Shown: positions 2,911-43,528, counted from the first letter of the stretch. The stretch is DNA of 64,000 bases from Candidatus Kerfeldbacteria bacterium (GCA_016193315.1 JACPSJ010000001.1:791478-855477), one strand, 5' to 3'. Translations and numbers: made by a program. The notes: generated by a model not told the origin, from the sequence alone.

Positions 2911-5900
2911 TTACGGGCTCCAATTTACGATAATATCGTCCACCCGTGGATAGTTTGAGCCCGAACTCGTACAATCATTTGAGCAGAGCTGTATTTTGTA
3001 CCGGAAGTAACGGTAATTATTGTGCTCGCTATACGATAATGTGACTGGTGTATTAGGGCTGGGGGCATTGTACCAGTCGGTTGAGACGCACGTCGGTCCA
3101 CTTGATACAGCGCAGAAGTTCCATGTACCAGCATCATCACAGGCGGGAGGATTGGTTTTCCCATTTGGACAGTTCGAAGTGGCCAGCTGGAATCGAACCG
3201 TGCCCGTTCCGGCTGCTCCCTGCCACATGACGCTGTTGTACGCCGCCCCGTCGGTCACTTGGGTATCAAAGACGGCTGATGTCAACGTCCCGTAGATCGT
3301 GCCCCCCGGACACGCATTGAAGGTCCAGCTCCCCTGATTTGTGCCAGGAACGTTCGTACCGCCGTTCACCGTGATCGGTACCGTGGCATTCATGTACGAC
3401 ACTGTGACGTCATAGAGTGTGAATGTTCCTGTTCCAGAGATCGAACGGGCCGGTTGCCCAGTGTCCGTCGTTGTCAACGTAATGTCATCGGAATCTGAGC
3501 ATCCATCGCTGTTTCCTCCGACGTCGAGCGTGAGGAGACCGCCACTGGCGACATCGAAGATGCCGCCGAGCATGATGTCGCCAATGGAGGTATTTGCCCA
3601 CTTGCCGTTCGCTCCGATCGTGACGGCGTTCGGCGAACCGTCGACCCTGATGTCTCCCGCTCCCTGCTGCAACTCACCCTGTGTGATGTTGAGGATGCCG
3701 TTCACGCGCAGTTCACTACCGATACCGACGCTCACCGCAGTCGTCGGTTGTGCTTTGCTGATAGTAACGGATGCGAAATCACTGGTGGAACACGAATCGG
3801 CATCGCCGCAGCCTGTGTTGAGCACCGTGGGGGTGGCGCCATCAAACGTAAGAGTCGCGGTACCTTCGTTGAACGTTCCGCTGTTAAACCAGTTCTCGCC
3901 AACGGTCAAGGATGCGGTGGGAGGAGCTGTCAACGTCGATCCATTTCCGATGACGACGTCACCATCGACGTCGACCGCCGTGTTGTTTGTCGCCGCTGTC
4001 ACAGTCACGGGATTCGCTCCACCGGCTGTAAGATCGGAAATTGTCCTGACCGTTCCCGTATCGAACGTGTAGGTTGGATTTCCGCTCGTCGGTCGCAACT
4101 CGAGGTTGTAATACGTTGTGGCGGTGATGTTTGTTGCCGTCGTGCCCGTGTAACGTATGGTTGAACTTGATGGGGTGAACACTTCGCCAGCACCGATGTT
4201 GAAAGGCTGGCCGCTTCCGGAGAGGGTGATGGTGTATGAAGAAGCATTGAACGTGTTCGTACCGCTTGACTGGTTAATCCAGAGCTTGCTTTGGACGGTG
4301 AAGTTTTGGGTGACATTTATGGTTGATGATTCGTCTGCTTTACCGATGTGCAGATTGCCGAACGTTGAGGCTCCTGAACCCCTGATGCTGCTTGGGGCGC
4401 CGGTGAGAGTCGTAACCCTATTCGCGTTCTGAGTTAGCGTGCCAAACGTCACGATTTCGGTGCCAGCAGTAAGATCGTAGTCGTTCAGGGCAAGCGTTCC
4501 AAGGGGGTCAGCGATTGTGACGCCGTCGAGCGCGGCCAGCACCGCCCCGCCCTGCCAGCTCTCAATTTGGCTCGTTGGCGCCGCACCGTTTCCGAACACG
4601 ACGATACCCGGTAAACCTGAAGCTATCGATGAATCAGTCGTTTGGAATTTGAGCTCGTTGTTGATATATAACTTCAGCGTGATGCCGATAACTTCAAGTT
4701 TTATTGTGTCACCAACTGTGGCGGCCGGTATTGTGTCGCCAGGTCCGGGATCGAGCGTCTGGTAAGCGCCACCTAACCATCGGTATACATCCGTCGGACC
4801 AGCGGTGGTATCTGTTGTATAGCAGTATCGATCTAAACCATCGCTGCTTACACGCACACAGACCTGCGCTTCGTTTCCTGGAGAAGCTGCCGCGATGACT
4901 GCCTCTGAATACTGATCAGCACCGACCGGGGATGCCCACGTGGCTGTATTATCTCCAGCCAGCGCGCCACCGAGATCCGAGCTGCTGTAAATCTGCGGGT
5001 CGCCCTGCACATTGTCCGTCCAGCCGGTGCCGAGTCCCGGTCCCGCCCTCTCGAAATCGTCCTGGGATGCGGTCAGGGAGTAGGTTCCGCCGCTGCCCGT
5101 CCAAAGATGGGAGTACGTAGTTGGCGCAACCGTTGCGCCCGTTGCATGGGAGTAGACGACCGTCGAGAAAACCGAATCGAAAACGCCCGGCGTGGTTAAG
5201 GAACCGTCAATAACGAACGGCGTTCCATTTCCTTCAATGGTCAGCACGTACGTATCGGCATCGAGCGTTCCGTCAACTTCGAGTGCAAAGGTGGTGACAT
5301 TGCCGTTGAGCGTGTAGGTATTTCCGGCCCTGATGTACAATTCCTCGCGCGCTGACGAGCCGTTATTATCAACAATCAGGTTGTTGCTTACATCAACGTC
5401 GTGGAACACGTCCGCATCCGGTGATACCGAGTCGTCATATGAACCGAGATTCGAACTGGAGAGCGACTGATTGTCATCACTCCCGATCGTCAGGTGTTCT
5501 TTGTACAAAGTAACGCCGGTGATATCCCCTGAACCGTCGTATTTCGTCACCGCAACCGCCCGATCGGTCGTCAAACCGGTCGAGATATCAATGAAGACGG
5601 TGACGACCGCTCCGCTTGCGGGTGCCGGAACGCTAGCGATGCTCCAGCTTCCTGCGACCGTTGGTTGGTTTTGGGATTGCAGCGTGTCATTGACAGCGAC
5701 GGCAATGGTCCCCACGTCTGCACAGGCAGTCGTTTGATCAAATGCGTTGCACGTTCCGGAGATATTCATGGTAGGTGGTGCTGCCGGCACGTACTCAACG
5801 AGCAGCCACATGGTTGTAACAGCAAGGATCGATCCACCGCGGGTCAGACGGACACCGATTTGTGTATTGTCAAGAACGCTCGGCGTCCAGGCAGAGGACG

Positions 5901-8900
5901 TGAATGGACGGTCGTACGCGGTAATGCTGTACAAACTCGGAATTGAGGTGTCGTTTGTCACCCACGCCGTTGAGGTAATGGCTTCAGTATCGCCTTCAAT
6001 GGCCGGTGCATTGGCACTGTCTTTAAGTCGGACAACGAGATCGGCTTGCGTGGAAGTCGTATTCGTGAACCGAATTCCGACCTGGGTCAGATTCACGAGT
6101 GCTCCGGCTGGTATCACCCCCGCAGTGTCTGTAACGTTTACATCGGCAGTTGCGTTGAGACTTGAGGCAGCCATGTAATGGCCACCAGTTCCGTCATTCG
6201 GAGTAATCTCGCTGGTACAGTCCCAGTTTGCCGTACATCCACCCTGATTGGTCCACTGTGAAAAATCTCCTGGTGGTGCATTGGGTCGTAGGTGGACAAC
6301 GCTGCCCGGCCCGGGGTAGCCGTTCTGCGTGGCACCGATCCCCTTGTTCACCGCGACGTCGTCGATGTACCAGTCACCGCCCTGCCCTCCATTAAACCCC
6401 GTGTTGCCGCCAACAGCAAGGTTCATTACACCATTGGCAATGTTCCGCGTTGAGCTCGTTGCAAAAACGGTGCCGTCGATCCGCGCTTCGACAATGTCGG
6501 TTGATCCCGATCCACGGGTGTCTAACTTCATCTCGATAAAGTACCACCTGTTGGTTGAGAGCACGCCCGAGGTGCCAATTGTTCCAACCTGGTCCCAGAG
6601 ATCGAGCAATCCAGTGGGTCTGATGGTAATTCCGGCTTGCCACGTTCCGCTGGAATCCTGAAAGTGCATGATCATACTGTCCTGCAAGCCGGTTGGAGGT
6701 GAGACAACGTAGAGGTACATCCGGGCGTAAAACGGTCCGTCATTATTCGCCGCCTCAAAATCATGTCCGATTCCCTTACGATCGAGTAAGGTTAATCCGT
6801 TGATCCGCATCGACGCGGCACCGGAGTGTTTCGTTGTGGTGTTGATGAGCGAGATGCCGTAGACTGTCTGGAACTCCACGCCGCTGGTCTCCGACTGCAG
6901 CTCGAACCCGGACGTCCACAGCCGTCCGCCCTCGGCCGGCACGTACTCTACCACGAGCCAGAGCGTGGTGACGAAGGTGTCCTCTGATGATGTAATGTCT
7001 CGAAGGCCGATCCGAGCGCTGTCGATGTCAGTCTTGGTTATCGGGTCTCCGTCCGCGGAGCCTGACTGATTAAAGAGGGTCAGCCGATAATTCTTCGGGT
7101 TGCTGACTGCGTTCGTCGTCCAGCCGGGAACGCTTTCGCCTGGACTGATGTATTCTTCTAAAGCATTCGTCCCTGGGATATTGATCCGAAGACCATACTG
7201 GGTGAGCGGGGTATCACCGTGAGAGTAACGAACGCCAACCTGCGCGAGCTTCACCTGATCGCCGTCGACGATACTCCACGTCGATGCATTTTGGACATCC
7301 ACCGTAATAATATCGCCTGTCGTGCACTCAGCAGAGTCAAGCTCATCATCGATCGGCGTCACCTCGTTGATAATGTCCCAGGCTGTGCTGCCGCCAGTGC
7401 AGGTATTCGAGACGTTGCCGTTCGGGAGCAGGTGGACGACCTTCCCCTCGCCCGGCCAATTCTGGTCATTGCCGCCGCTGTCGTCATTGATCGCGATGTC
7501 GTCAAAGTACATATCGCCCGTAACGCCGGTCGTGTAGTAGCCGAAGTAGAGATCGAGTGCTCCGCTGGTAAAATCTTGGTCAAGCCGAGACGCGAAAGAT
7601 GCGCCGTCAAGCCTGGCTTCAAGTTCGTCGTTGAGACCGGCGCCGTCAGTCGAGTCGAATCTCATCTCAAGCCGATACCACGTGTTGAGCAAGAGCGGCG
7701 ACGAAGATCCGATCAGAATGCCATCTTCTTCATTCCGAAGATCAAGGGTCAGGTTAGTGTTCAGTCGAATACTCGCCTTAGTGCTTGGCGCTGAATTGAC
7801 AAATGCCACAATGAGGGTTTGGGCTGAAGGAGCAGTGGTAATCCGAATGAATGTCCGGACGTAGATGTCGTCGGGGAGATTCGCCGCCGCGTAGCGATAG
7901 CGAATGTTTTCAACGGCAGCCGAGCTGGTTACTTGGGTTCGCAACGACGCCGCGCCTGATCTGACATAGCTGGGGCTGGTGTTGATCGCCGGTAATCCGT
8001 TGGTCGCGGTAATCTCCATGCCCGCAGACAGGCTCTGCAGCTCAAACCCGATGGTTGTCAGCCGACTTCCCGAGGCCGACCCGCCGACCGAGTCCAAGGC
8101 AACCTGCCACGGCCGTGACTCGCTGAACTCTCCCAGCGCGAGCGGACCGAGGAGGTACAGGGCCGGGGCAATGTCCGGAAAATCAATGGTGTACTCGAAC
8201 TCGTGCGTTTCGCCCGTTCTCCAGTCGACGTTCCAGGCAATTTCCTGCTCAAGATCGCTCACTGGTTGCACGGCACCTTCGTCAGACACCGATTTCAGTA
8301 TGAAGTCGGACGGAACACGTTCTCGAACGGTTCCGCGATAATTGCTGTTGGCTGTGATCGTCAGCTTCACGTTGTAATCAACCACCGGGAAGACGCGGGT
8401 GGGGAAGGTGGTGCGCTCGATATCGAAGGGAACCGTGTCGCGCACCTCAAAGAAGTCGTCAATTGACCGCGTTCCGTTGATGTTTGTGGCCGTGACCCGG
8501 AGCCGGTAAATTCCGCTTTGTCCGGCGCGGTACGAGGCGGCGTAGTCGGGGTTGATGGTGACGCCCTTGTCAACGCACTCGGGGTCCGGCCGAATGGTTC
8601 CATCCGATGTGGAGAAACGTTGGTTCCGACCTGCGGGGTCTGTGACGACCAGTTCGACGCCCGCGCTACACTGGGTGTGTCCGGTATCATCCAGTACGGT
8701 CATGCCGATCTCGGTGGTGGTGTCCGGCCGGATGATGGAGCGGCGGACGTTGACGCCGATCACCCCCCAGAAGAATGTTCTGTTCACAACCATGGTCTTG
8801 CCGTTCGGTGCGCGAAACTGAACGCGGGCGGTGTAGCGGCCGGGACGCAGGCCGGCGGTGGAAAACCGGAGAACGGTATCTGCATCGCGACCGCGTCGAC

Positions 8901-9219
8901 GAACTTCTTCTGTGAACGCCTGCTGCAAGATACTGTCATCTGGACTGACGAGCGTCACGTCATCGATCTTCCAGGGTCCGGTCGACGCTCTCAGCAACCG
9001 CGGCTGTAGTGCGTTCGATGAAATGGCGATCGTCGGTTGCTCGGTCACTCGGAATGCGCGATCTTCTGATCGGGCTGACGATCTGATTTGTTGCGTACTC
9101 GATGTCTGTCGGAAAACGACAACCGTCACTATGGCTGCCAGTGCTAGGAGCGTCGCTCCGACTGCGCCGGGGCTGATGATGGAAACATGTGACGATTGCT
9201 TTGTCCTTGATCGTCTCAT
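2911..9219 (-). CDS. Giant (~2,100 aa) membrane-anchored surface protein with two LamG/concanavalin-A-like lectin repeat modules and a Thr/Gly/Asn-rich C-terminal beta-rich region; putative pilus-associated adhesin
   Basis: Single long ORF (track 2911..9330). The likely start MRRSRTK at 9219 overlaps the stop of the upstream minor pilin. N-terminal TM anchor (AVGATLLALAAIVTVVVF). Two ~395-aa internal repeats (about 6933..8118 and 5778..6933), each with a LamG_3-like core (NTWYRLEMRFDSTDG..YFDDIAIND and NRWYFIEMKLDTRGSG..YIDDVAVNK) and ending in WLVVEYVP / WLLVEYVP. It is embedded between pilin genes. Confidence 0.75.
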   Translation of the reverse strand: MRRSRTKQSSHVSIISPGAVGATLLALAAIVTVVVFRQTSSTQQIRSSARSEDRAFRVTEQPTIAISSNALQPRLLRASTGPWKIDDVTLVSPDDSILQQAFTEEVRRRGRDADTVLRFSTAGLRPGRYTARVQFRAPNGKTMVVNRTFFWGVIGVNVRRSIIRPDTTTEIGMTVLDDTGHTQCSAGVELVVTDPAGRNQRFSTSDGTIRPDPECVDKGVTINPDYAASYRAGQSGIYRLRVTATNINGTRSIDDFFEVRDTVPFDIERTTFPTRVFPVVDYNVKLTITANSNYRGTVRERVPSDFILKSVSDEGAVQPVSDLEQEIAWNVDWRTGETHEFEYTIDFPDIAPALYLLGPLALGEFSESRPWQVALDSVGGSASGSRLTTIGFELQSLSAGMEITATNGLPAINTSPSYVRSGAASLRTQVTSSAAVENIRYRYAAANLPDDIYVRTFIRITTAPSAQTLIVAFVNSAPSTKASIRLNTNLTLDLRNEEDGILIGSSSPLLLNTWYRLEMRFDSTDGAGLNDELEARLDGASFASRLDQDFTSGALDLYFGYYTTGVTGDMYFDDIAINDDSGGNDQNWPGEGKVVHLLPNGNVSNTCTGGSTAWDIINEVTPIDDELDSAECTTGDIITVDVQNASTWSIVDGDQVKLAQVGVRYSHGDTPLTQYGLRINIPGTNALEEYISPGESVPGWTTNAVSNPKNYRLTLFNQSGSADGDPITKTDIDSARIGLRDITSSEDTFVTTLWLVVEYVPAEGGRLWTSGFELQSETSGVEFQTVYGISLINTTTKHSGAASMRINGLTLLDRKGIGHDFEAANNDGPFYARMYLYVVSPPTGLQDSMIMHFQDSSGTWQAGITIRPTGLLDLWDQVGTIGTSGVLSTNRWYFIEMKLDTRGSGSTDIVEARIDGTVFATSSTRNIANGVMNLAVGGNTGFNGGQGGDWYIDDVAVNKGIGATQNGYPGPGSVVHLRPNAPPGDFSQWTNQGGCTANWDCTSEITPNDGTGGHYMAASSLNATADVNVTDTAGVIPAGALVNLTQVGIRFTNTTSTQADLVVRLKDSANAPAIEGDTEAITSTAWVTNDTSIPSLYSITAYDRPFTSSAWTPSVLDNTQIGVRLTRGGSILAVTTMWLLVEYVPAAPPTMNISGTCNAFDQTTACADVGTIAVAVNDTLQSQNQPTVAGSWSIASVPAPASGAVVTVFIDISTGLTTDRAVAVTKYDGSGDITGVTLYKEHLTIGSDDNQSLSSSNLGSYDDSVSPDADVFHDVDVSNNLIVDNNGSSAREELYIRAGNTYTLNGNVTTFALEVDGTLDADTYVLTIEGNGTPFVIDGSLTTPGVFDSVFSTVVYSHATGATVAPTTYSHLWTGSGGTYSLTASQDDFERAGPGLGTGWTDNVQGDPQIYSSSDLGGALAGDNTATWASPVGADQYSEAVIAAASPGNEAQVCVRVSSDGLDRYCYTTDTTAGPTDVYRWLGGAYQTLDPGPGDTIPAATVGDTIKLEVIGITLKLYINNELKFQTTDSSIASGLPGIVVFGNGAAPTSQIESWQGGAVLAALDGVTIADPLGTLALNDYDLTAGTEIVTFGTLTQNANRVTTLTGAPSSIRGSGASTFGNLHIGKADESSTINVTQNFTVQSKLWINQSSGTNTFNASSYTITLSGSGQPFNIGAGEVFTPSSSTIRYTGTTATNITATTYYNLELRPTSGNPTYTFDTGTVRTISDLTAGGANPVTVTAATNNTAVDVDGDVVIGNGSTLTAPPTASLTVGENWFNSGTFNEGTATLTFDGATPTVLNTGCGDADSCSTSDFASVTISKAQPTTAVSVGIGSELRVNGILNITQGELQQGAGDIRVDGSPNAVTIGANGKWANTSIGDIMLGGIFDVASGGLLTLDVGGNSDGCSDSDDITLTTTDTGQPARSISGTGTFTLYDVTVSYMNATVPITVNGGTNVPGTNQGSWTFNACPGGTIYGTLTSAVFDTQVTDGAAYNSVMWQGAAGTGTVRFQLATSNCPNGKTNPPACDDAGTWNFCAVSSGPTCVSTDWYNAPSPNTPVTLSYSEHNNYRYFRYKIQLCSNDCTSSGSNYPRVDDIIVNWSP

Positions 9220-9926
9220 GGTGTGATCGTGATGCTCCCGGGAGTGGTAGTGTAGTCGATGTTTGTCCGCGTGTCGAAGCTGCCGCTGTTGATGTCGCGC
9301 AGGTTTGCACCATCCTCCTGCGTCGTCCATGTAGATTCGACACCCGCTCTATTGGGCCAACGCGTAACGTAGTCACTCGCGCTCAGCGCTGCCGCCCCAG
9401 GCCAGCTCACCGCGACAGAAATCTTTTGCGTTGACGGATCGTGTCGATTCGACGGCGGCGTGCACGTGACTCCCGTGCCATTGGAGTTGGTGACACCAAC
9501 AATTGCCCCGCTACCGTCTCGACACACGTTCTGCACCCGAAAAGAACGCGTGTAATCGACGCCGTTGATGGAAAGTATTTCAGACCCTTCATTCGACGGA
9601 TGAGAGATTACCCACGCTCCCGAGGGGTAGGTCGGTGGCAGTTGACCAGTATTCTTTATGGGATGATATGGAACATCCTTCTGACGATCAAAGATGTTTA
9701 TCCAGTTTTCGGTTGCGGCCGCATGCACCGCTTCAAAGGTTTCTTGCATCAGACCGTTGGCGACGTTTCTCTCGGTCGCAATCTTGTTCCCCCGCAGGCT
9801 GACGACTACAATCTGACCGCCCGCGCCAAGAATCACCATGGCCACGGCGATGGTAATGAGTATTTCTAGCAGGAGCTGACCGTTCCGGTGTCGATGGTCA
9901 TGCCTGATGGAGGTGCGTATGGCCAC
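9216..9926 (-). CDS. Minor pilin/pseudopilin (PilW/PilV-like)
   Basis: Prepilin-type N-terminus NG|QLLLEILITIAVAMVILG with Glu+5; 236 aa; stop overlaps the start of the giant gene. Confidence 0.55.
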   Translation of the reverse strand: MAIRTSIRHDHRHRNGQLLLEILITIAVAMVILGAGGQIVVVSLRGNKIATERNVANGLMQETFEAVHAAATENWINIFDRQKDVPYHPIKNTGQLPPTYPSGAWVISHPSNEGSEILSINGVDYTRSFRVQNVCRDGSGAIVGVTNSNGTGVTCTPPSNRHDPSTQKISVAVSWPGAAALSASDYVTRWPNRAGVESTWTTQEDGANLRDINSGSFDTRTNIDYTTTPGSITITP

Positions 9927-9938
9927 AGAACCTAGACG

Positions 9939-10466
9939 CTAGTATATATTTCCGTTCGTCGTCACGGTAATATCCTGAGCTCGTCCTTCAGATTGGATGG
10001 TAATAAGCCTGTTCGGATTGGTGGTCCCGTGAAGACGGTCAAAAATTACGTCCATGGTTGGGGCGGCGAATGTCATACTGCCCGGCAGGTAGATGGTTTC
10101 CTTGACTGTGCGGCCGATATAGTCCGTGGTTGAAAAGTTTTCATAGTAGTCGGAACCGGCCGCGTTGACAAAACGAATGCCCCAGTGGCTCGCATCTTCA
10201 CTGGCAATCGCTTTGGCCTGCGCCTGACGGAGATCGAAGATGATTGATTTTCTTGCTTCTTCCAGCTCCGAAGTTTTCGCATAGTTCCGGTAGTAAGCCA
10301 CACCGCCGACACCGATGACGGCGAGAACCGCAATGGTCAGCAGGGCTTCAACCAGGGAAAACCCGTGGCGTTGCCCCCCCTTGGCTAGCAGGGGGAAAGC
10401 CGGCGCAACACAGTCTGCGTCTGCTGCCTGCGACAGACCGACACGATCCGCCGGGATGAGACTCAT
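9939..10466 (-). CDS. Pseudopilin, FimU/GspH-like
   Basis: Prepilin N-terminus HG|FSLVEALLTIAVLAVIG. The leader is unusually long if the start is at 10466, so the true start may be internal. First gene of the minor-pilin operon downstream of pilC. Confidence 0.6.
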   Translation of the reverse strand: MSLIPADRVGLSQAADADCVAPAFPLLAKGGQRHGFSLVEALLTIAVLAVIGVGGVAYYRNYAKTSELEEARKSIIFDLRQAQAKAIASEDASHWGIRFVNAAGSDYYENFSTTDYIGRTVKETIYLPGSMTFAAPTMDVIFDRLHGTTNPNRLITIQSEGRAQDITVTTNGNIY

Positions 10467-15597: not shown

Positions 15598-17472
15598 TCA
15601 GAGGGAATGTGAGGCTCGTGATTCGCCGTGCTCAAATAGGATATCTGCAGTATACCACGGGGCTGGTTGCCTGTTGAACCGTATCGGCTGCCCTTGGGCG
15701 GCTAATCTTGGATACAAAAAGAGCGAGACCTGGGTTGGTCTCGCTCGGGAAGAGGTTGAAAGAGCTGCCGTGCGGATGACTTTCATCCGCACCTTGATCG
15801 TCCCGCTCAGTCGAAAGTGCGGCGCTGCCCCGGGCCGGTCTTCGAGCTGCGGAACGTTGAGCCCGAAGTAGAGTTCCTTGCCCGACGGGTGGGCCGGTTT
15901 GAAAGTCCAGCCAGCGTACCCGACGTACATCGGGTCCGCCGAAAGCCCGTGTCTGAGAAGCAGGGCTCCGGCTGGCAGAGAAGCGCGGATACAGTTGGAG
16001 GCAAACCAGGCGTTGCTATTCTCGGGGGTCACCCGGCAATGCCTTACCGGGTCGATGATGCCGCCAGTGGAAACCTCACCTGGAGCGCCATGCCGGTCGT
16101 AACTGGTGTAGGTGCTGTCCGTCACCAGCCCGGAGACGTACTGGCCGGGTTGCAGGATGACGTGGCTTCGGTACCAACCGATGCCAGCCGGCATCTCCAC
16201 TTCCACCCAGCCGCCGGGGAGGCGACGGATGGGCAGCGGCTCCTGGGGCTCGGGGATGTAGCCGTCCCCGATCTTGCGAGGATTCGGCAACAGTTCGAAC
16301 CCGACCGCCTTGTCCACCGCCGCATTCAGATCATGAACGGGTGCCGTAGTGATTTTCGACCCCCACTCATAATGCTGAACCATCAGCCAGAACAGAGCGA
16401 TGACCAGGGCTAGCAACGCGACCCCGAACAACGTCTGTCCCCACGTCCGGCGACGGTAGTCGCGGATGGGGGGGAACTGGTAGGCCATTCTCCCCGCACC
16501 CGCCGCTGGCTGGCGCGAAAGACGTGCCAGATGGATCGTCCACCACAGCTGGACCACGAAAATCACTGTGGCCAGAGAGCGGATGACCCACGTCAGCCAA
16601 CTGTGAACCTTGGCCGGATCACTGGGCCAGAGCGCATCCTTGAACTCCGGCCACATCAGCCAGAGGGTGATGTCGCCGATCGTGAAGGCAGTGGCCCAGT
16701 TGGTCCACCACCAGAACGGTCCCCGTGCCGGACCCGGCCGGTAGGACACGTGGGTCCAGAACAGCACCGGGATGAGCAGCGCCGCCACGTACTTCATTGG
16801 CGGATGGTTGTGGAATGGCGCCAGAGCGTACCAGAAGGCTCCGATGGAGAAGAACATCGCGATGCGCGCCACGATCTTCCACCATCCGTCGAGCCACTGA
16901 AGGCCGGTCTTCCCGCCGGATAGCAGGAACGACGGAAGGGACCTCAGGTACCCCCACGACAGTTCCTTTTCCCCGATCGCGGTTAAAGCCCCAGCGCCAG
17001 CCCCGACAGCCGCAACCAACGGCGCCAGCTTGGCCCACCCGAACATCGCCAAGAGCGACACCGCCACCAGATCCCACATCATCCACCAGGCCCGGTCGTC
17101 GATCTGGTTGAACCTCGTGATCCACATGATACCGGCCATGCCCAGTCCCAGTAGCAGGACCAGGCCCCAGATCACGCACCGTCGCAGGAGGATGTACGAC
17201 CGCATCGACCAGTCGTAGACCCGAGCGGCGATCTGCTCGCCATACTGCATCCGCGCATAGTGGTAGAACTCGGTGATCAGGTCTCGCCCCTCGCGGGTCA
17301 AGACCAACGGGATCAGCGCGACGGCGCCGACTCCGTATGGCGCCAACTTCTTGATTGCCGCGATGACCTCATCCTTGATTTCATCGAAGAAGGCCCAGAA
17401 GCCGGTGGCCGTCCTGGCCGCCGTCCCTTCGGGCTGGTTACCCTGCGGGGTCCTCGGATTCTGATCAGCCAT
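15598..17472 (-). CDS. Hypothetical Trp-rich polytopic membrane protein (~12 TM) with a ~240-aa C-terminal extracytoplasmic domain
   Basis: 624 aa; many hydrophobic helices rich in Trp (GPFWWWTNWATAF, WWKIVARIAMFF); no recognisable catalytic motif. Start overlaps the stop of the upstream gene by 8 nt. Confidence 0.55.
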   Translation of the reverse strand: MADQNPRTPQGNQPEGTAARTATGFWAFFDEIKDEVIAAIKKLAPYGVGAVALIPLVLTREGRDLITEFYHYARMQYGEQIAARVYDWSMRSYILLRRCVIWGLVLLLGLGMAGIMWITRFNQIDDRAWWMMWDLVAVSLLAMFGWAKLAPLVAAVGAGAGALTAIGEKELSWGYLRSLPSFLLSGGKTGLQWLDGWWKIVARIAMFFSIGAFWYALAPFHNHPPMKYVAALLIPVLFWTHVSYRPGPARGPFWWWTNWATAFTIGDITLWLMWPEFKDALWPSDPAKVHSWLTWVIRSLATVIFVVQLWWTIHLARLSRQPAAGAGRMAYQFPPIRDYRRRTWGQTLFGVALLALVIALFWLMVQHYEWGSKITTAPVHDLNAAVDKAVGFELLPNPRKIGDGYIPEPQEPLPIRRLPGGWVEVEMPAGIGWYRSHVILQPGQYVSGLVTDSTYTSYDRHGAPGEVSTGGIIDPVRHCRVTPENSNAWFASNCIRASLPAGALLLRHGLSADPMYVGYAGWTFKPAHPSGKELYFGLNVPQLEDRPGAAPHFRLSGTIKVRMKVIRTAALSTSSRARPTQVSLFLYPRLAAQGQPIRFNRQPAPWYTADILFEHGESRASHSL

Positions 17473-18769
17473 TGACAGTTCTCCTTCCGCGCACGATCAG
17501 TGCCGCGGTGATGACGAGGGCCGCCGTCAGTACGACCCCGCCGATCCACCAGTAGTTTCCGCGAAGGATCTCCTGAATCGCCAGGGTTCCAACCGCGAAC
17601 GACCCGGCCGCGACGACTGCCAGGAACACCATCCATTGGTGCTTCCGAGAGCTCGACCGCTCGTGAGCGAGTCGAAGCGGGTCGTCCGGCTTGAGAAGGT
17701 TGCGACGATGCGGGTACTTCTTGAGGTTGGCCGGACTGAAGAACTCGACTTTCCAGTTCGGCCGGTCCAGGTAGCCCGGATCGAGCTCTTCGTTCCTCTC
17801 GGCCAGCCAATCCGTCATCTCGCCCACGGGATCGGAGAAATACTTCCTCCAAAGCACCCGCAGCTGCCGACGCTGACGACGAGTCAGCGGGAATCGCCAC
17901 TCATTCATGCTGTTGACTGCGCGCAAGAACGTCAAGCGCTCGTCCGTCTGCTCGGATGGATCGGTCTGTCCAGTCTCCGCCAGGCGGTTGGTAGGTTCGG
18001 GATCCGGATGACGAATCTCAACGACTTCGCCGCTGGCGTTGACCACCTGCGTCTCCGGCGCAAGTACTTCCTCGGCCGGCCTGATTCCCTGGGTCAGTCG
18101 GGGAGAACCGGGGTCGAGAAGCAGAAGCCGTCCCATCTCCCCGGCCTCGTTGACGGCCCGGAGCGCGGGTTGGAGTTCGTGACGGACACGCTGAGGCAGG
18201 CCCATCCACCACTGACTGAAGTCGATCATCGCTTCCGGCCCGAGCTCGGTCGTGGCCTTGGCCACTAGGAATCCTTGCCGGAATTCGAGGAAGTCCTTGA
18301 CGAATCCGCCCCGCATCCAGTTGCGGAACGTGTTCATCCCCTCTCTCAGGTACCTGTTCAGCCGACCCGCAATCCGCTCGAAGTCTCCTGGTTGCGGTCC
18401 GGGGTAGCCCGCCGGGAAAACGCTGTCCGGCTGCTCCTCGAAATACTCCCGCAGGGTGAACGGCAGGTCCTCCATGAGCGTGGTGACGCCTTCGTTCGTG
18501 ACGTGACCGATGGCGCCTGTCCGGGCGGCCAGCCAGTCGGCAAAGAATTCCGCCGCCGTCAGGCCCCCAAGCATCAAGTTCCGGAACGTCTCGGCGCGGT
18601 CGGGCTCGCGCTTGTGGTACCAGACCGCTGCCAGCCAGGCTGGCTCGTCAGTCTGACGTAGAAGGTCGAGCCGCCGGCGTAGGAACCGCTTAAACGGCCG
18701 CCGGATGATGTTGCCGGTGATGACCTCGAAGCCTTCGAGGAAACCTTTTTCTCCCCTAGCTTCAGCCAC
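17465..18769 (-). CDS. Hypothetical protein: ~370-aa cytoplasmic domain with two C-terminal TM helices
   Basis: ORF track gives 17465..18793 (GTG start). An internal GTG at 18769 is preceded by a strong SD (GAAAGGAG-N7-GTG) and is the more likely start. No recognisable domain; C-terminal WMVFLAVVAAGSFAVGTLAI and IGGVVLTAALVITAALIV helices. Confidence 0.5.
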   Translation of the reverse strand: MAEARGEKGFLEGFEVITGNIIRRPFKRFLRRRLDLLRQTDEPAWLAAVWYHKREPDRAETFRNLMLGGLTAAEFFADWLAARTGAIGHVTNEGVTTLMEDLPFTLREYFEEQPDSVFPAGYPGPQPGDFERIAGRLNRYLREGMNTFRNWMRGGFVKDFLEFRQGFLVAKATTELGPEAMIDFSQWWMGLPQRVRHELQPALRAVNEAGEMGRLLLLDPGSPRLTQGIRPAEEVLAPETQVVNASGEVVEIRHPDPEPTNRLAETGQTDPSEQTDERLTFLRAVNSMNEWRFPLTRRQRRQLRVLWRKYFSDPVGEMTDWLAERNEELDPGYLDRPNWKVEFFSPANLKKYPHRRNLLKPDDPLRLAHERSSSRKHQWMVFLAVVAAGSFAVGTLAIQEILRGNYWWIGGVVLTAALVITAALIVRGRRTVNG

Positions 18770-18923
18770 TTTCTTGCTCCTTTCACGCGACACCCGAATG
18801 ATCGGGTCGCAGTTGTGCGTGATCGATACAGCTCAGCGCCTTAGGTCGGCGCGTTTCTTCGATATTACTTCAATTGTCAAGTTGCGCTCGGAAACAACTA
18901 ATTCCAGATCGCAGTGACCCCTG

Positions 18924-18952
18924 ACGCTAGCACAAACTTACGTTTTTGTCAA
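18924..18952 (-). promoter_or_regulatory. Candidate promoter TTGACA-N17-TAGCGT for the unknown module/receiver operon
   Basis: Perfect -35 TTGACA overlapping the last codons of the comEC MBL ORF, with a 17-nt spacer and a weak -10 TAGCGT; about 150 nt upstream of the 18769 start. Confidence 0.25.
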
Positions 18953-19792
18953 GCGCCAATTTCCGCGTCCGTCAGTTTCAAATTCCAACGTCCCTTCCAA
19001 ATCCGTCCGGTGGACCTCAACCCGGAAGTATTCCAGCCGTCTTAGGGTCGTCGGATGCGGATGGTGATAGCGGTTTCTTGACCCAACCGAAATCACTGCT
19101 ATCCTCGGCTGCACTGCCCGCAACCAACTGTGGCTGGTCGAAAACCGCGATCCGTGATGACCGACTTTCAACAGCGACGCTCGCACGTTAACCCCGCTGG
19201 CGGTAATCCGTTCCTCGACCTCACTCGACGCGTCGCCGACCATCACCGTAGTACTGCCAGCACAGGTCAAACTAATACCAACTGACCACTCATTGGTCGC
19301 GGTGGTACGTGAATTCCGTACGGCGTCCAGAAACGGCCACAGTATTTCCAGTTTTAGGTACGAACCGAGCTGGAATTGTTCGCCTTGCTGTACAACGCGC
19401 TCGTCTACGCTTCGTTCCGCGAGCACTTTCCGCCAGGCGTGCCAGGTGGCAGTGTCGGTGCTGACGCCGGACGTCAAGAGGGTCATAATCTCAAACCGTT
19501 TTGCCACCGACACCAGGCCGGTCAGGTGATCGCTGTCAGGATGGGTCAGCACTATCAGTTCCAGGTTTCGGTTCCCCGAACCGAGGTAGTGGGGCAAGAG
19601 TTCGACAATCTTTGACGATGGTCCGCCATCAACGAGCATGTCTTGATGATCAGGTGTCTGAATGAGGATGGCGTCACCCTGGCCGACATCAAGAATGGTT
19701 AATCGACAAGCCGGACTGACATCAGTCGGCCAAAACTGAACCGCCAGCCACAGCCCGAAAACCAGACTAAGCCAGAGGACTTTCAGTCGCAT
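18938..19792 (-). CDS. comEC: ComEC/Rec2 C-terminal metallo-beta-lactamase domain protein, with its own N-terminal TM helix
   Basis: ILDVGQGDAILIQTP, HPDSDH and GHHGS motifs of the ComEC MBL domain; N-terminal hydrophobic helix VLWLSLVFGLWLAV. Confidence 0.75.
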   Translation of the reverse strand: MRLKVLWLSLVFGLWLAVQFWPTDVSPACRLTILDVGQGDAILIQTPDHQDMLVDGGPSSKIVELLPHYLGSGNRNLELIVLTHPDSDHLTGLVSVAKRFEIMTLLTSGVSTDTATWHAWRKVLAERSVDERVVQQGEQFQLGSYLKLEILWPFLDAVRNSRTTATNEWSVGISLTCAGSTTVMVGDASSEVEERITASGVNVRASLLKVGHHGSRFSTSHSWLRAVQPRIAVISVGSRNRYHHPHPTTLRRLEYFRVEVHRTDLEGTLEFETDGRGNWRLTKT

Positions 19793-21191
19793 GGTTTCGA
19801 GTCATCAGATGAAACGCAAACCAAACCGCTAGCGCCGCAGTCAAGGCGACCAGCCAACCGGACAACTGAACAGCGGCGTTCGGCAGTGTTGCACCCCAGT
19901 GAATGATGGATAAAATTCCGCGGACCACCGTATCCGTGGCCGGCCCCAGTAGACCAACAAACAGCGCGCCGAACCCCAACCCCATACCGAGTGGGATGAG
20001 CGGCAACACGCTGGTGTTGACCAGCGGCGCCACGAGTGACAGGCGGCCGAAGTGCCACAGCAGCAACGGCTCGGTCATCAGCATCGCCGCCAGTGTCGTG
20101 GCCAGGTTGTCGCGCAGACCAAAAGCTTCGGGCACCCACGGCAACCGTTCAGCTAAGGGTTTAGCCACGCCCACCAGCCCGATGGTCGCCAAGAATGAGA
20201 GTTGAAAGCCGAGATCATGAAGCAGGATGAGCGGATTGTTCCAGGTCATCACCAGCAGTGTGTAGCCGAGCAGCCTAGCCATGGCGATCGGCCGGCCGAG
20301 CCGGCTGGCCAACACTACCATCATGACCATCAGGCCAGCGCGGGTGACCGAAGCCGAAGCGCCGGTCATGATAACAAATCCGATGACCAAAAACACGGTT
20401 GGCAACCAGGCCCAGCGGCGGCCGATTATTCGAATCAGTACGGTTGAAGCGGCGGTCACGATGATGGTCACGTTGAAACCGGATAGCGCCACCAGGTGAG
20501 TCGTGCCGGTCAGTCGAAACTCTTGCCGCAGTGCGTAGGGCATGTCGGCTTGGGCGCCGAGAAGCAAACCGACCAGAAACGAAGCGGCGGGTTCGTTGAA
20601 ACTAGTCTCGATTCGCCGTCGGGCCCACTCCCTGACGTACGCCAAGACCAGCCGTGGACTGAGCCGAGCTCGTTCTTGATGTACGATCCTGGCTCCCAGA
20701 CACTCAGTCGTCAAACCGTGAACCATCTGGGACCACCGTCGATCGGATCTGATCGGAACTGGTTGACAACGCATCGTCACCCGATCGCCAACGGAAACCA
20801 TGGTCCCGGGCAGCAGGTCAACCGCTGTTTTGCCTGACCGACGCTCTCCGTCCATCCGTAGATCGCTCAGTTCAACCGTCATCTCGCGAGATTCGGTGGA
20901 CGGGCGTTCGAGTATGAGACCAGAAATAGCTACCGGCTGGTTGATTCTGGAGACCAGATTGTGTGGGCTTGGTGCTACCCAGCCAGCCCAGCGTCCCAAA
21001 CCAAAACTCATCCCAATTACCACGCAACTGACCAGACGCAGCCGAGACCACGGCCAGAATCCAAAACCGGTAACCAGCAGCCCGCCAGCCGGCCACCAAG
21101 TCAGGCCGGTTAACTCAGCCAGCATCAACCCGCCCAAGAAACCCGCCAGTGTCGATAACAAATAGGACCGAGGCATAGACGCTTCGGCCAC
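19767..21191 (-). CDS. comEC: ComEC/Rec2 membrane channel portion (competence domain)
   Basis: Polytopic membrane protein with the Competence-domain signature TGTTHLVALSGFNVTI. It ends 26 nt inside the start of the MBL ORF, in a different frame. Confidence 0.75.
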   Translation of the reverse strand: MAEASMPRSYLLSTLAGFLGGLMLAELTGLTWWPAGGLLVTGFGFWPWSRLRLVSCVVIGMSFGLGRWAGWVAPSPHNLVSRINQPVAISGLILERPSTESREMTVELSDLRMDGERRSGKTAVDLLPGTMVSVGDRVTMRCQPVPIRSDRRWSQMVHGLTTECLGARIVHQERARLSPRLVLAYVREWARRRIETSFNEPAASFLVGLLLGAQADMPYALRQEFRLTGTTHLVALSGFNVTIIVTAASTVLIRIIGRRWAWLPTVFLVIGFVIMTGASASVTRAGLMVMMVVLASRLGRPIAMARLLGYTLLVMTWNNPLILLHDLGFQLSFLATIGLVGVAKPLAERLPWVPEAFGLRDNLATTLAAMLMTEPLLLWHFGRLSLVAPLVNTSVLPLIPLGMGLGFGALFVGLLGPATDTVVRGILSIIHWGATLPNAAVQLSGWLVALTAALAVWFAFHLMTRNHATESPLA

Positions 21192-35994: not shown

Positions 35995-38900
35995 CTAGCT
36001 ACAACCAGTCGTGGTGCCACACTCCATACAGATCTGGCACGAACCGTTGCGTTTCATCTTCATCGAGCCGCAGCTGGCGCAGGTGTCGCCGGTGTAGCCC
36101 TGGGCTTTGGCCGTCAGCGCTTGGTTGGCCGCCTGGCTTGGTTCGATCGGGATTGAGGCCGCTACGACGGTCGGTGCAACTGCCGTTTCTGTCTTGGCCG
36201 TCTCGGTGGTCAGCGCGGTGGGGCTGGCTAGCTCCTGGTTCTGCCCGCTCCCTGGCTTGATCTGAACAAGATCTTCGCGATTGAGGTACTCATAACCGAG
36301 CATCCGGAAGACGAAGTCGAGAATCGAGGTAGCCATTTTCACGTTGGGGTGGCCGATGACCGGGCCAGCCGGCTCGAAACGGGTGAAGGTGAAGGTATCG
36401 ACGAACTCTTCGAGCGGTACGCCGCGCTGGAGACTCTTCGAAATGGCAATGGCGAAGCAATTGATAAGCGAACGATAGGCCGCGCCTTCTTTGTACATGT
36501 CGATGAAGATTTCGCCCAGCCGGCCATCGTGATACTCGCCGGTGCGCAAGAAGACTTTGTGGCCGCCGACGATCGCTTCTTGCGTCCAGCCCACCCGCTT
36601 GGCCGGCAGTTTTTCCTTGGCCCCGCGGACGGCGACGATGTCGTTCATCATTTGCGGTGTCGGCTCGGCGACATTATCGTCGGCGGCCCCCAGGGCGGCA
36701 ATTTCATCGTCAGCGTTGACGCTGTTGAGTGGTTGGGATAGCTTTGAGCCGTCGCGGTAGAGGGCGATGGCTTTGAGCATGAATTTCCAAGCGTCCCCGT
36801 GGACTTTCTTGACATCTTCAAGCGTTGCCTCGTTCGGCATGTTGATCGTTTTCGAAATGGCGCCGGACAGGAACGGCTGAACAGCCGCCATCATTTTGAT
36901 GTGGGCCGGGTAGGGAATGTAGCGTTTGCCTTTGACGCCGCACTTGTTGGCGCAATCGAAAATCGGGTAATGTTCTTCCTTTAGGTGCGGTGCGCCTTCG
37001 ATGGTCATCGTTCCGACCACGTACTCGTTGGCGGCCTCAATCTCCTCCTGGCTGAACCCTAGCGCCTCGAGCACTTGAAAAGCGGGCTTGCCCGCCGCCG
37101 CACCCAACCCAATCCGCTCCATCGTCTCGGGACCGAGGGTGGTCGGGTTGATGACGAAGCGGATGTCAAAGGTTCCCTCCAGCGCCAGTTCAATCTTGGC
37201 CAGATCGTCGCCGGTAAAGCCTTTGGTCTTCAGCGCGGCGTGGTTGATGTGTGGCGCATCGGCCAGCGTCCCATGGCCTTGGCAGTAATCCTCGATGTCC
37301 TTGATTTGTTCATCCGAGTAGCCGAGCCGCTTCAATGACTTACTGACCGAGGCGTTGACGATCTTGAAGTATCCACCGCCGGCCAGTTTTTTGAACTTGA
37401 CAATGGCAAAATCCGGTTCGACGCCCGTCGTATCACAATCCATCACCAGCCCGATCGTCCCGGTGGGCGCAATCAGCGTGGCTTGGGCGTTGCGGAAGCC
37501 ATGCTCCTTCCCCCATTGCAGGGCTTTGTCCCACGCTTCGCGGGCAGCCTTGATCAGCGGTTCCGGTGCTTGTTTCGGATCCAGCCCCAGGGGCGTGATG
37601 GTCAAGCCTTCATATTCGCCGGGCGGAGCATTATAGGCTGCGCGACGATGATTCCGGATGACCCGCAGCATCTGCTCACGATTACGTTCATAGGCTGGAA
37701 ATGGACCGAGCAGACTGGCCAACTCGGCACTCGTGGCGTAGCTTTCGCCGGACATGATGGCCGTCAACGCCCCGGCAATCGCCAGGGCCGGCGGCGAATC
37801 GTATGGCACGCCCATGGTCATCAGCACCGTCCCCAGGTTGGCGTACCCGAGTCCGAGCGTGCGGTACAGGTACGACAAGCGGGCAATCTCTCTGCTTGGG
37901 AACTGAGCCATCAGCACGGAAATTTCCAAGACGATCGTCCATAGCCGCGTGGCGTGCTTGAAGGCCTCGAGCGAGAACGTCCCACTGTCGGCATTGTAGA
38001 AGTGCGCCAGGTTGATGGACGCTAGATTGCAGGCCGTATCGTCGAGGAACATATACTCGGAACACGGATTCGAGGCGGTAATCCGCCCGTCAGCCGGACA
38101 GGTGTGCCACTCGTTGACAGTCGTGTCGAACTGGAGACCAGGATCGGCGGACATCCAGGCCGCCTGGGCGATGTCATCCCACAGTCGCCGAGCCTTGTAG
38201 GTGGCGGCTGGCTGGCCGTTCGTTCGCCACCGCGTCTGCCAATCTTCGTTCCGCTCAACGGCCCGCATGAATTCGTTCGGGACCCGAATCGAATTATTGG
38301 AATTCTGGCCGGAGACGGTCAAATACGCTTCGCCTTCGAAGTGGGTGTCGAAGACTGGGAAATCGATCGACGATTGGCCCTGGGCGACCAGCGCCAAGCA
38401 ACGCAAGATGTAATTCAGCGGCACCCGACGCTGGAGGGCGTGGCGAACGGCTGTTTTCAGGGCCGCGTTGGTGTGGTAATCGGTGGTATTCTGTTCAGTC
38501 GCCACTCGCATGATGCCATTCAAGGCCTGGGCGTTGATCATGCTGCCGGTCACCAAGTCGGCCACCTTCTGCTCTTCCTTTGCTTTCCACCAAATGAAGT
38601 CCGTTACATCCGGATGATCGATATTAACCACCACCATTTTGGCCGCCCGGCGCGTGGTCCCGCCGGACTGAATGGCGCCGGCCGAACGGTCAAAAATCTT
38701 CAAGAACGACATCAGGCCTGAGCTATACCCCCCGCCGGACAGCTTTTCATGACGGCTGCGGAGCGAGGAAAAATTACTGCCCGTGCCGGAGCCATACTTG
38801 AACAGCCGCGCTTCCCGCGTCACCAAATCAAAAATGCCTCCTTCGTTGACCAAATCGTCTTCCAGTCGCTGAATGAAGCAGGCGTGCGGTTGCGGATGGG

Positions 38901-39519
38901 TATAGGCGTCCGCGGATCGTTTCAACACCGCCGTCCCCGGGTCGACGTAGTAATGGCCTTGCGGTGTACCGGTAATTCCGTAGGCCCAATTGAGTCCGGT
39001 GTTAAACCACTGCGGTGAATTCGGCGCGCCCATCTGTCGGATAAGCATGTGTTCCATCTCGTCCTGAAAGGCCTGCGCGTCCTCCGGCGAAAAAAAATAA
39101 CCGTGCTGCTCCCCCCACCAGCGCCAGGCCCCGGCCATCCGTCGGACCACCTCCTTGACGCTTCGCTCCGAGCCGAGGATGGGCTGACCGTCCGGGCCCA
39201 GCCGGGGCTGGCCATGTCGATCTCGCTGCGGAACCCCGGCTTTGCGGAAATACTTTTGGGCCACGATGTCCGTCGCCACCTGACTCCAGCCGACCGGCAC
39301 CTCGACGTCACGGATTTCTTTGATCACCGAGCCGTCCGGATTCTTGATCACCGAATGCCGACGCTCGTACTGCACCTGTTCGAGCGGATCCTGGCCGGCC
39401 ACAGTGAACAGGCGCTCGATTTTCAGCCCGGCCCCTCGGCGTGGCGGGGGCGGAGCCACCCGTTGGCCGGGCGCCGTTGAAATTGGCGTACGCTCGCTGG
39501 TGAGTGTCTTGGTGGTCAT
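35995..39519 (-). CDS. nrdJ: Class II (adenosylcobalamin-dependent) ribonucleotide reductase
   Basis: 1174-aa single-chain RNR with class II features, a C-terminal CxxC...CxxC Zn-ribbon tail ([22 protein letters not shown]) and an N-terminal ATP-cone-like region. Confidence 0.9.
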
Positions 39520-43435: not shown

Positions 43436-43528
43436 TCTCGCCCATTATCATGGCGACGAAATTCATACTTGACAAGCCGCTTGGTCAAACCAGATGGTCA
43501 TCGATGGCGAAACTTATTTCGGCCGTGT

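Follow-up and report, generated by a model that had tools for sequence, protein, structure and literature searches.

We conclude that two overlapping genes in a 64-kb stretch of a Candidatus Kerfeldbacteria metagenome-assembled genome (MAG; GCA_016193315.1, JACPSJ010000001.1:791478-855477; the whole stretch is hereafter the window) are a real, conserved and separately regulated orphan membrane cassette, positionally tied to the competence gene comEC in a narrow lineage of the ultra-small bacteria of the Candidate Phyla Radiation (CPR). All features of the pair lie on the minus strand. The first gene encodes a protein with a large helical domain and a C-terminal membrane anchor (the partner), and the second a polytopic, tryptophan-rich transmembrane protein (the TM protein). 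The cassette consists of these two genes and not of a three-gene unit with the receiver that follows them in the window, and its conserved neighbour is comEC, not the pilus genes. An earlier note on this DNA had placed the pair between comEC and pilus genes, and both flanks were confirmed.

The two overlapping open reading frames (ORFs) of 442 and 624 residues described in that note were borne out, coordinates included. They share 8 nt (ATGGCTGA), and GGAAGGAG stands upstream of the TM-gene start. The partner ORF is indeed open to a GTG at 18793, which would give 442 residues, but translation most likely starts at GTG 18769 and yields 434, because AAGGAG stands 7 nt upstream of this codon, homologues begin with MAE or MAD, and the NCBI call is also 434 aa. 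Public annotation lists both exact proteins as hypothetical (HYY50_04310 and HYY50_04315, Candidatus Kerfeldbacteria MAG). We regard both genes as real because homologues at 17–52% identity retain the same motifs in both proteins. The pair co-occurred in all 15 loci examined (labelled L001 and so on), one copy per locus, with hidden Markov model (HMM) E values ranging from 1e-34 to 1e-159 for the partner and from 1e-102 to 1e-147 for the TM protein. Start and stop codons overlap or abut (0–8 nt of overlap or a gap of 1–4 nt in nearly all loci), a recurrence that agrees with the translational coupling proposed for the window.

Genomic context was resolved in 11 loci, and four contigs were too short to tell. 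In 10 of the 11 (the window, L001, L005, L010, L012, L013, L014, L016, L018 and L021) the pair follows comEC and a metallo-β-lactamase (MBL) gene, directly except for a 95-aa ORF in L010 and two genes in L012; the competence or DNA-uptake neighbourhood noted at the outset therefore holds across relatives. comEC itself is split in every related locus, its two ORFs overlapping by ~26–35 nt in different frames; in the window the overlap is 26 nt, and the MBL ORF carries an N-terminal transmembrane (TM) helix of its own. The linkage survives changes in the flanks, where glmS is present or absent and genes for a transposase, Fic or a CDP-alcohol transferase are inserted in some loci. Downstream of the pair we normally found YfhO followed by L20/L35/IF3; L022 has PNP and a pyrophosphatase, and receiver and pilus genes occur only in the window. 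The eleventh context is L009, where the cassette, with the same promoter and leader, lies inside a Patescibacteria-type type IV secretion system (T4SS) cluster. The order there is a polytopic protein of 1003 aa (a candidate only for the VirB6 slot), proteins of 247 and 97 aa, the pair, a proline-rich protein of 484 aa, PrgI (PrgI/VirB3), a TraC-like protein, VirB4 and two VirB2-like pilins, a gene set that agrees with the one described for T4SS of this type (PMC12102498).

Identity to the window proteins is 72–75% for RF, 45–53% for MBL and 43–47% for ComEC, against 23–39% for the partner and 23–52% for the TM protein. The values for the pair fall into two classes, whereas ComEC distances are uniform; the pair therefore evolves faster or has been exchanged between genomes. 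GC content reaches 62.8% over positions 16001–18000, within the cassette, compared with ~58% for the window on average, and may reflect amino-acid composition (rich in Ala, Gly, Arg, Trp and Pro) or foreign origin. The record that holds L001 and L019 (CAYGGC010000001.1) is titled 'uncultured Gammaproteobacteria bacterium'; it is probably mislabelled, since its gene content and synteny are those of Kerfeldbacteria-like CPR loci.

Separate regulation is indicated at both ends of the cassette. A promoter of the form TTGACA-N17-TAGCGT had been proposed in the earlier note; the sequence was confirmed, and TTGACA-N16/17-(TG)-TAnnnT stands at the same place in 13 loci (the window, L001, with promoter and leader at 8633–8795, L005, L009, with both at 8765–8865, L010, L012 in two copies, L013, L014, L016, L017, L018, L021 and L022). 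Because the flanking proteins of these loci are only ~45% identical, this conservation supports a promoter belonging to the pair. The L001 copy matches 11 of 12 consensus positions; the −10 hexamer of the window is weak alone and was missed by a consensus scan. The leader that follows is built in a constant order: GGTCAyTG, a variable stretch, a 14-nt box, a hairpin and, last, the Shine-Dalgarno (SD) sequence. Near-invariant in an alignment of 10–14 leaders, the box is present as a single copy both in the 64-kb window and in each related locus. A hairpin stands at the same position in all related leaders, with a sequence that differs between loci and often with a U-rich tract behind it. We suggest that the box is an operator or a binding site for a protein or RNA factor, and the hairpin a possible attenuator. 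RNAalifold returned no consensus RNA structure for the leaders, and Rfam gave nothing real in the region. We do not propose a riboswitch, since manual inspection revealed no stem that covaries consistently between GGTCAyTG and the box. A possible mini-ORF starting at the TTG of the box was rejected as a general feature, its length being inconsistent and an SD absent in several loci.

In L012 the promoter and leader are duplicated. The extra copy precedes the two additional genes between MBL and the cassette (5883–8195), an SPFH/Band-7 gene (481 aa) and a gene for an unknown protein (282 aa), and it appears to drive both. In three loci a long inverted repeat lies directly upstream of the cassette promoter (L009 8650–8760, L016 ~4470–4590 and L012 ~5655–5770; for example TTGACCCCGTTAGAAGTGG ... 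CCACTTCTAACGGGGTTGACA), its right arm ending at the −35 element. L009 and L016 have nearly identical arms, those of L012 being different; a terminator, an insulator or an insertion scar are candidate explanations.

At the 3′ end, an intrinsic terminator (−20.8 kcal/mol, z −6.0; 0 of 200 shuffled sequences fold as well) and a promoter-like site fall within the final ~50 codons of the 624-aa ORF. In L001 an equivalent terminator of 14 bp stands 21 nt past the stop codon, and homologues stop near the position aligned to window residue ~570. The tail of the ORF thus looks like, and probably is, read-through of former intergenic DNA: it seems that the original stop codon is gone and that the frame now continues to 5 nt before the receiver gene. 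On account of the same terminator and promoter-like site, the receiver is probably a transcription unit of its own. Its position and its Response_reg domain are as first described, and the expected active-site residues can be read from its sequence (D11/D12, D54, S84 and K106). Its inclusion in the module is not supported, as the terminator intervenes and a downstream receiver occurs only in the window: among the related loci examined, none has a receiver after the pair (YfhO usually takes this place), and L013 has the only other receiver nearby, placed upstream of comEC and with 22% identity to that of the window. Beyond the receiver, the window encodes a pilin, PilB (T2SSE, 5e-126), PilC (T2SSF) and more pilins. 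No relative has pil genes within 10 kb of the pair, so that the suggested link to pili is not supported, and neither protein has a Pfam match to type IV pilus assembly proteins (PilM/N/O/C-like).

The TM protein has ~9 predicted TM segments by family-averaged hydropathy, not the 12 counted from the single sequence. It is as rich in tryptophan as had been reported (5.3% overall, 7% in the first 400 residues, that is, in the membrane part). Only the N-terminal membrane core of ~375 residues is common to the whole family, and it carries the motifs SLPxFLxxG..G..W..W(R/K), P(L/F)H(N/Q)xP and RGxFWWWxNW. Five columns are invariant in the 16-sequence alignment (M1, G161, W198, R250 and G327), none of them acidic; an Asp in TM7 is mostly conserved. 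The C-terminal extracytoplasmic domain, put at ~240 residues in the earlier note, is indeed a non-membrane domain, but only ~200 residues of it are conserved and the rest overlies the terminator. A six-sequence profile of this domain aligned weakly with the lectin LecA/PA-IL (hhalign probability 15%, P 0.0018; reversed control P 0.43; the LecA sequence was checked against 1L7L), pairing the motifs GDVI and GALVMKIGNSG. LecA was not recovered when the domain was searched as a profile against Protein Data Bank (PDB) sequences, nor did the domain match Pfam PA-IL.

The partner is predicted to fold into an all-helical cytoplasmic domain of ~370–380 aa that ends in a conserved juxtamembrane motif, (F/Y)SPxNLKKYPxR...DPRR. 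What follows the motif varies: a TM hairpin in the window (helices 388–406 and 416–434, in line with the two membrane helices first assigned to it), a single TM helix and a Big_7 immunoglobulin (Ig) domain (Pfam PF17957, best E 1.9e-7) in four distant relatives, or a single TM helix alone. Big_7 is absent from the window partner, where a second TM helix takes its place. Because a single TM helix leads to an Ig domain in those four relatives, their C-terminus is predicted to lie outside the cell. An HMM built from comEC-linked partners matches those of L009 and L018 at E ~1e-57. Readings of the partner as Wzz/PCP-like or MotAB/ExbBD-like were rejected, as it has no N-terminal TM helix and no conserved Asp in a TM helix.

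The family is small. Run exhaustively against 1.84 billion representatives, a HMMER profile search returned only 15 proteins, 12 of them below 1e-10; word-indexed searches gave three relatives of the TM protein and one or two of the partner, and genome and metagenome scans for further members only two and one loci. Neither window protein matched Pfam or NCBIfam, and neither family matched PHROG or PADLOC models below E 0.01; Big_7 was the only library match of the partner family (Pfam, NCBIfam, PHROGs, PADLOC). Searches of PDB sequences with profiles of both families and of the C-terminal domain gave nothing or chance-level helical matches. These results agree with the first impression that neither protein has a recognisable motif, the four Big_7 domains excepted. 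Membership in a well-known family such as GT-C, raised in the earlier note, was looked for with Pfam and hhalign and not found: no member of the TM family matched Pfam GT-C or TrbL/VirB6 even at E ≤ 10, and hhalign detected no similarity of the family to ComEC, YfhO (probability 0.2% for that of L001) or the polytopic L009 T4SS protein. Tblastn searches of plasmid, phage and IMG/VR collections found no relatives, and a literature search found nothing on this gene-pair family. Structure prediction of each protein, also suggested at the outset, was run with AlphaFold2 from alignments of four (TM protein) and three (partner) sequences; predicted local distance difference test (pLDDT) scores of 37 and 49 gave no usable fold. 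Because it matches no known family, the pair is new relative to described systems as judged by sequence and profile comparison, and remote homology is possible given the unusable models.

Table 1. Coordinates of the cassette, its regulatory elements and its immediate neighbours in the window.
Feature	Position	Strand	Remarks
Partner gene (first of the pair)	17465..18769	(-)	434 aa from GTG 18769; ORF open to 18793 = 442 aa
TM gene (second of the pair)	15598..17472	(-)	624-aa ORF
Polytopic membrane core, residues 1-375	16347..17472	(-)	~9 predicted TM segments, Trp-rich; conserved in all 16 family members
Optional C-terminal non-membrane domain, ~200 residues	15763..16346	(-)	predicted extracytoplasmic; in 6 of 16 family members
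Tail of the 624-aa ORF	15598..15762	(-)	last ~50 codons; hold terminator and promoter-like site
Cassette promoter: TTGACA (18952..18947), 17-nt spacer ending TGn, TAGCGT (18929..18924)	18924..18952	(-)	conserved architecture
Leader box TTGACAATTGAAGT	18867..18880	(-)	family consensus (GGAGGGCAGT)TTGACAAyTGAATA; ~45 nt downstream of -10
Leader hairpin GCGCC-N7-GGCGC	18836..18852	(-)	between box and start codon; window copy weak, z -0.4
Intrinsic terminator GAGCGAGACC-AACCCA-GGUCUCGCUC, then UUUUUG	15715..15746	(-)	hairpin 15746..15721; likely 3' end of cassette transcript
Promoter-like site TCAACA-N17-(TG)-TATACT	15649..15677	(-)	upstream of receiver gene; consensus match only
Stand-alone CheY-like receiver, 126 aa	15212..15592	(-)	Pfam Response_reg E 1e-22; starts 5 nt after TM-ORF stop
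Split comEC: Competence-domain ORF 19767..21191 and MBL ORF 18938..19792	18938..21191	(-)	Pfam Competence 1.4e-45, Lactamase_B 1.9e-13

The reading that we favour, tentatively and at less than an even chance, is that the pair forms a heteromeric complex of the cytoplasmic membrane that is an accessory of a machinery translocating DNA or other macromolecules, ComEC here and the T4SS in L009. Both genes would supply subunits of one complex, the partner as a tail-anchored subunit whose large cytoplasmic domain is helical and the TM protein as a Trp-rich subunit with ~9 helices. The cassette would be expressed independently, with a promoter and a terminator of its own and a regulatory leader after the promoter. 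The complex would be a lineage-specific addition to envelope-spanning DNA translocation, here through the split ComEC channel and nuclease encoded just upstream. On the inner side, incoming substrate or cytoplasmic partners would meet the helical domain; on the outer side, the Ig-like or beta domains that some relatives have as optional extracellular parts would extend into the wall or surface. The complex as a physical entity, its topology and a role of any kind in DNA uptake are what we infer; the architecture, coupling, conserved promoter and leader, comEC linkage and one T4SS occurrence are observed. Support comes from the joint occurrence of the two genes in all 15 loci, with start and stop that overlap or abut, from the persistence of the comEC linkage through several flank rearrangements, from the sole other resolved context being another macromolecule translocation machine, from the promoter, box and hairpin conserved in 13 loci together with a terminator after the cassette in the window and L001, and from the lack of any mobile-element or defence sign in the plasmid, phage, IMG/VR and PADLOC searches. 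A bolder version, in which an unrecognised membrane subcomplex plugs into either the split ComEC importer or the Patescibacteria T4SS as a CPR-specific functional counterpart of ComB-ComEC and is switched by a new cis-regulatory leader (TTGACAAyTGAATA box and attenuator-like hairpin), strikes us as rather improbable.

Several observations weigh against an accessory role in translocation. The comEC-linked loci share a wider block (HtrA, RF, comEC, MBL, the pair, YfhO, L20/L35/IF3), so adjacency to comEC may be inherited and not selected, and with its own promoter and terminator the pair need not be co-expressed with comEC. The pair diverges far faster and more unevenly than ComEC. Pfam and NCBIfam scans revealed no known DNA-binding, ATPase or nuclease domain in either protein, and the accessory Ig-like and possibly lectin-like domains look like surface-binding rather than DNA-binding modules. 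With 15 representatives in 1.84 billion proteins, the family does not extend beyond a very narrow lineage, unlike comEC, which is widespread in CPR. The T4SS context is a single contig, and the structure models are unusable.

The main rival is an envelope or surface module unrelated to DNA transport, for instance a polymer scaffold or transporter, or an anchor for host contact or adhesion, whose position beside comEC was inherited. We consider it unlikely, though it deserves serious weight. Envelope genes abound around the pair (YfhO, PMT_2-like, polysaccharide deacetylase, L,D-transpeptidase, glmS, CDP-alcohol phosphatidyltransferase), the partner has an optional Ig domain (Big_7/Glucodextran_B-like) and the TM protein a beta domain with the weak LecA-like signal, fast and uneven divergence is typical of surface-exposed proteins, and the duplicated L012 promoter and leader appear to drive a gene for an SPFH/Band-7 membrane scaffold. 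Yet no member matches a GT-C, Wzy, flippase or other polysaccharide family, no acidic residue is invariant across the family, and in L009 the pair is surrounded by a T4SS cluster instead of envelope genes; the extracellular domains, moreover, are absent from many members, and the conserved core is therefore membrane and cytoplasm. The L009 copy, between the polytopic 1003-aa protein and PrgI/VirB4, also suggests a diverged remnant or analogue of the T4SS inner-membrane translocon, VirB6-like and VirB8/TraM-like, recruited beside ComEC in the manner of the ComB T4SS of Helicobacter. 'Extended VirB6' (PMC12857230) has a parallel in the polytopic protein and its optional hydrophilic C-terminal domain, the partner is bitopic with a cytoplasmic N-domain and an extracellular C-domain, and VirB6 is reported to be extremely divergent or undetectable in some Patescibacteria classes (PMC12102498). 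This origin is nonetheless quite improbable in our view: 0 of 16 members match Pfam TrbL/VirB6 even at E ≤ 10, PrgH is not matched either, hhalign finds no similarity to the L009 protein that is the candidate occupant of the VirB6 slot, and the window and nine other resolved loci are not in T4SS clusters.

A self-contained mobile or conflict cassette that lodged beside comEC, serving for example entry exclusion, toxin-immunity or anti-phage defence, is in our view a quite improbable reading as well. Such a cassette would fit the dedicated promoter, leader and terminator, the two genomic contexts with the same regulatory region, the two divergence classes of a fast-evolving pair beside uniform ComEC distances, the very narrow taxonomic spread and the inverted repeats just upstream of the promoter in L009, L016 and L012. 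It is hard to square with the same insertion site in 10 diverged genomes at one copy per locus, the lack of a consistently adjacent transposase or integrase, and the searches of PADLOC and PHROG models and of plasmids, phages and IMG/VR contigs, all without a match. A membrane sensor giving input to the neighbouring CheY-like receiver and to the type IV pilus genes, a role that the earlier note had entertained, is essentially refuted by the comparative context and the terminator. It drew on the window arrangement, with the receiver 5 nt past the ORF stop and pilin, PilB and PilC genes next; Pfam and NCBIfam scans found no HisKA/HATPase_c, HPt or other phosphotransfer or signalling domain in either protein, a strong terminator and a promoter-like site separate the end of the conserved protein from the receiver, no relative has a receiver or pil genes downstream, and the L013 receiver is both distant in sequence and on the other side of comEC.

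CPR bacteria (Patescibacteria) have no nucleotide synthesis of their own and are believed to rely on importing DNA or host material, and how their ComEC and unusual T4SS are assembled in the envelope is poorly known. If the favoured reading is true, a separately regulated membrane complex locked to comEC, and once present in a T4SS, would point to lineage-specific parts of these machines. It would also be a well-defined object for structure prediction and, in cultivable relatives within the CPR, for genetics, and the conserved promoter and leader offer one of few comparative handles on CPR transcription signals, with possible attenuation. The lineage is narrow, CPR genomes are full of orphan genes, and the function of the pair is predicted only, which limits the significance.

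Three further observations concern other parts of the window. An ORF of 2139 aa with no clear Pfam domain (2911-9330, (-)) lies among N-methyl pilin-like genes and may be a pilus-associated adhesin; a protein with a weak PilN match is also present (the accompanying genes are at 20-1120, (+); 2387-2974, (-); and 9939-10466, (-)). Three tandem DUF2079 paralogues, GT-C-like membrane proteins, lie beside ftsZ/ftsA (40362-45058, (-)). A class II ribonucleotide reductase of 1174 aa (35995-39519, (-)) has a TSCPD domain and a barrel domain whose match is divided into two stretches; it may hold an insertion, for instance an intein.

Compared with known systems, the TM protein resembles GT-C glycosyltransferases in being polytopic with a C-terminal extracytoplasmic domain, and GT-C genes (YfhO, DUF2079, PMT_2-like) are abundant nearby; it differs from them in having ~9 and not 11–13 TM helices, no invariant acidic residue, no Pfam match and no hhalign similarity to YfhO. 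In Firmicutes, competence accessories are encoded with comEC, namely the DNA receptor ComEA and ComFA/ComFC. Like them, the pair is a small set of membrane and cytoplasmic proteins near comEC that could assist DNA passage, but it has no helix-hairpin-helix, helicase or phosphoribosyltransferase-like domain and shares no homology with them. With VirB6 or 'extended VirB6' and VirB8-like proteins (PrgL/TraM) the pair has in common a polytopic, Trp-containing protein with an optional large C-terminal hydrophilic domain (PMC12102498, PMC12857230), a bitopic partner with the N-terminus predicted in the cytoplasm and the C-terminus outside, and one family member in a T4SS cluster; it departs from them in giving no Pfam TrbL/VirB6 or PrgH-type signal and in having comEC as the context in 10 of 11 resolved cases. 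In Helicobacter pylori, DNA is taken up in two steps by a chimeric machine in which the ComB T4SS cooperates with ComEC (PMC12857230). The host of the pair is by contrast a monoderm CPR bacterium with type IV pili, the pair bears no similarity to any VirB or ComB protein and has no ATPase of its own, and its functional link to ComEC is suggested by gene position only. What the two have in common is membrane components of a T4SS context that are tied to ComEC, made up of a polytopic and a bitopic protein.

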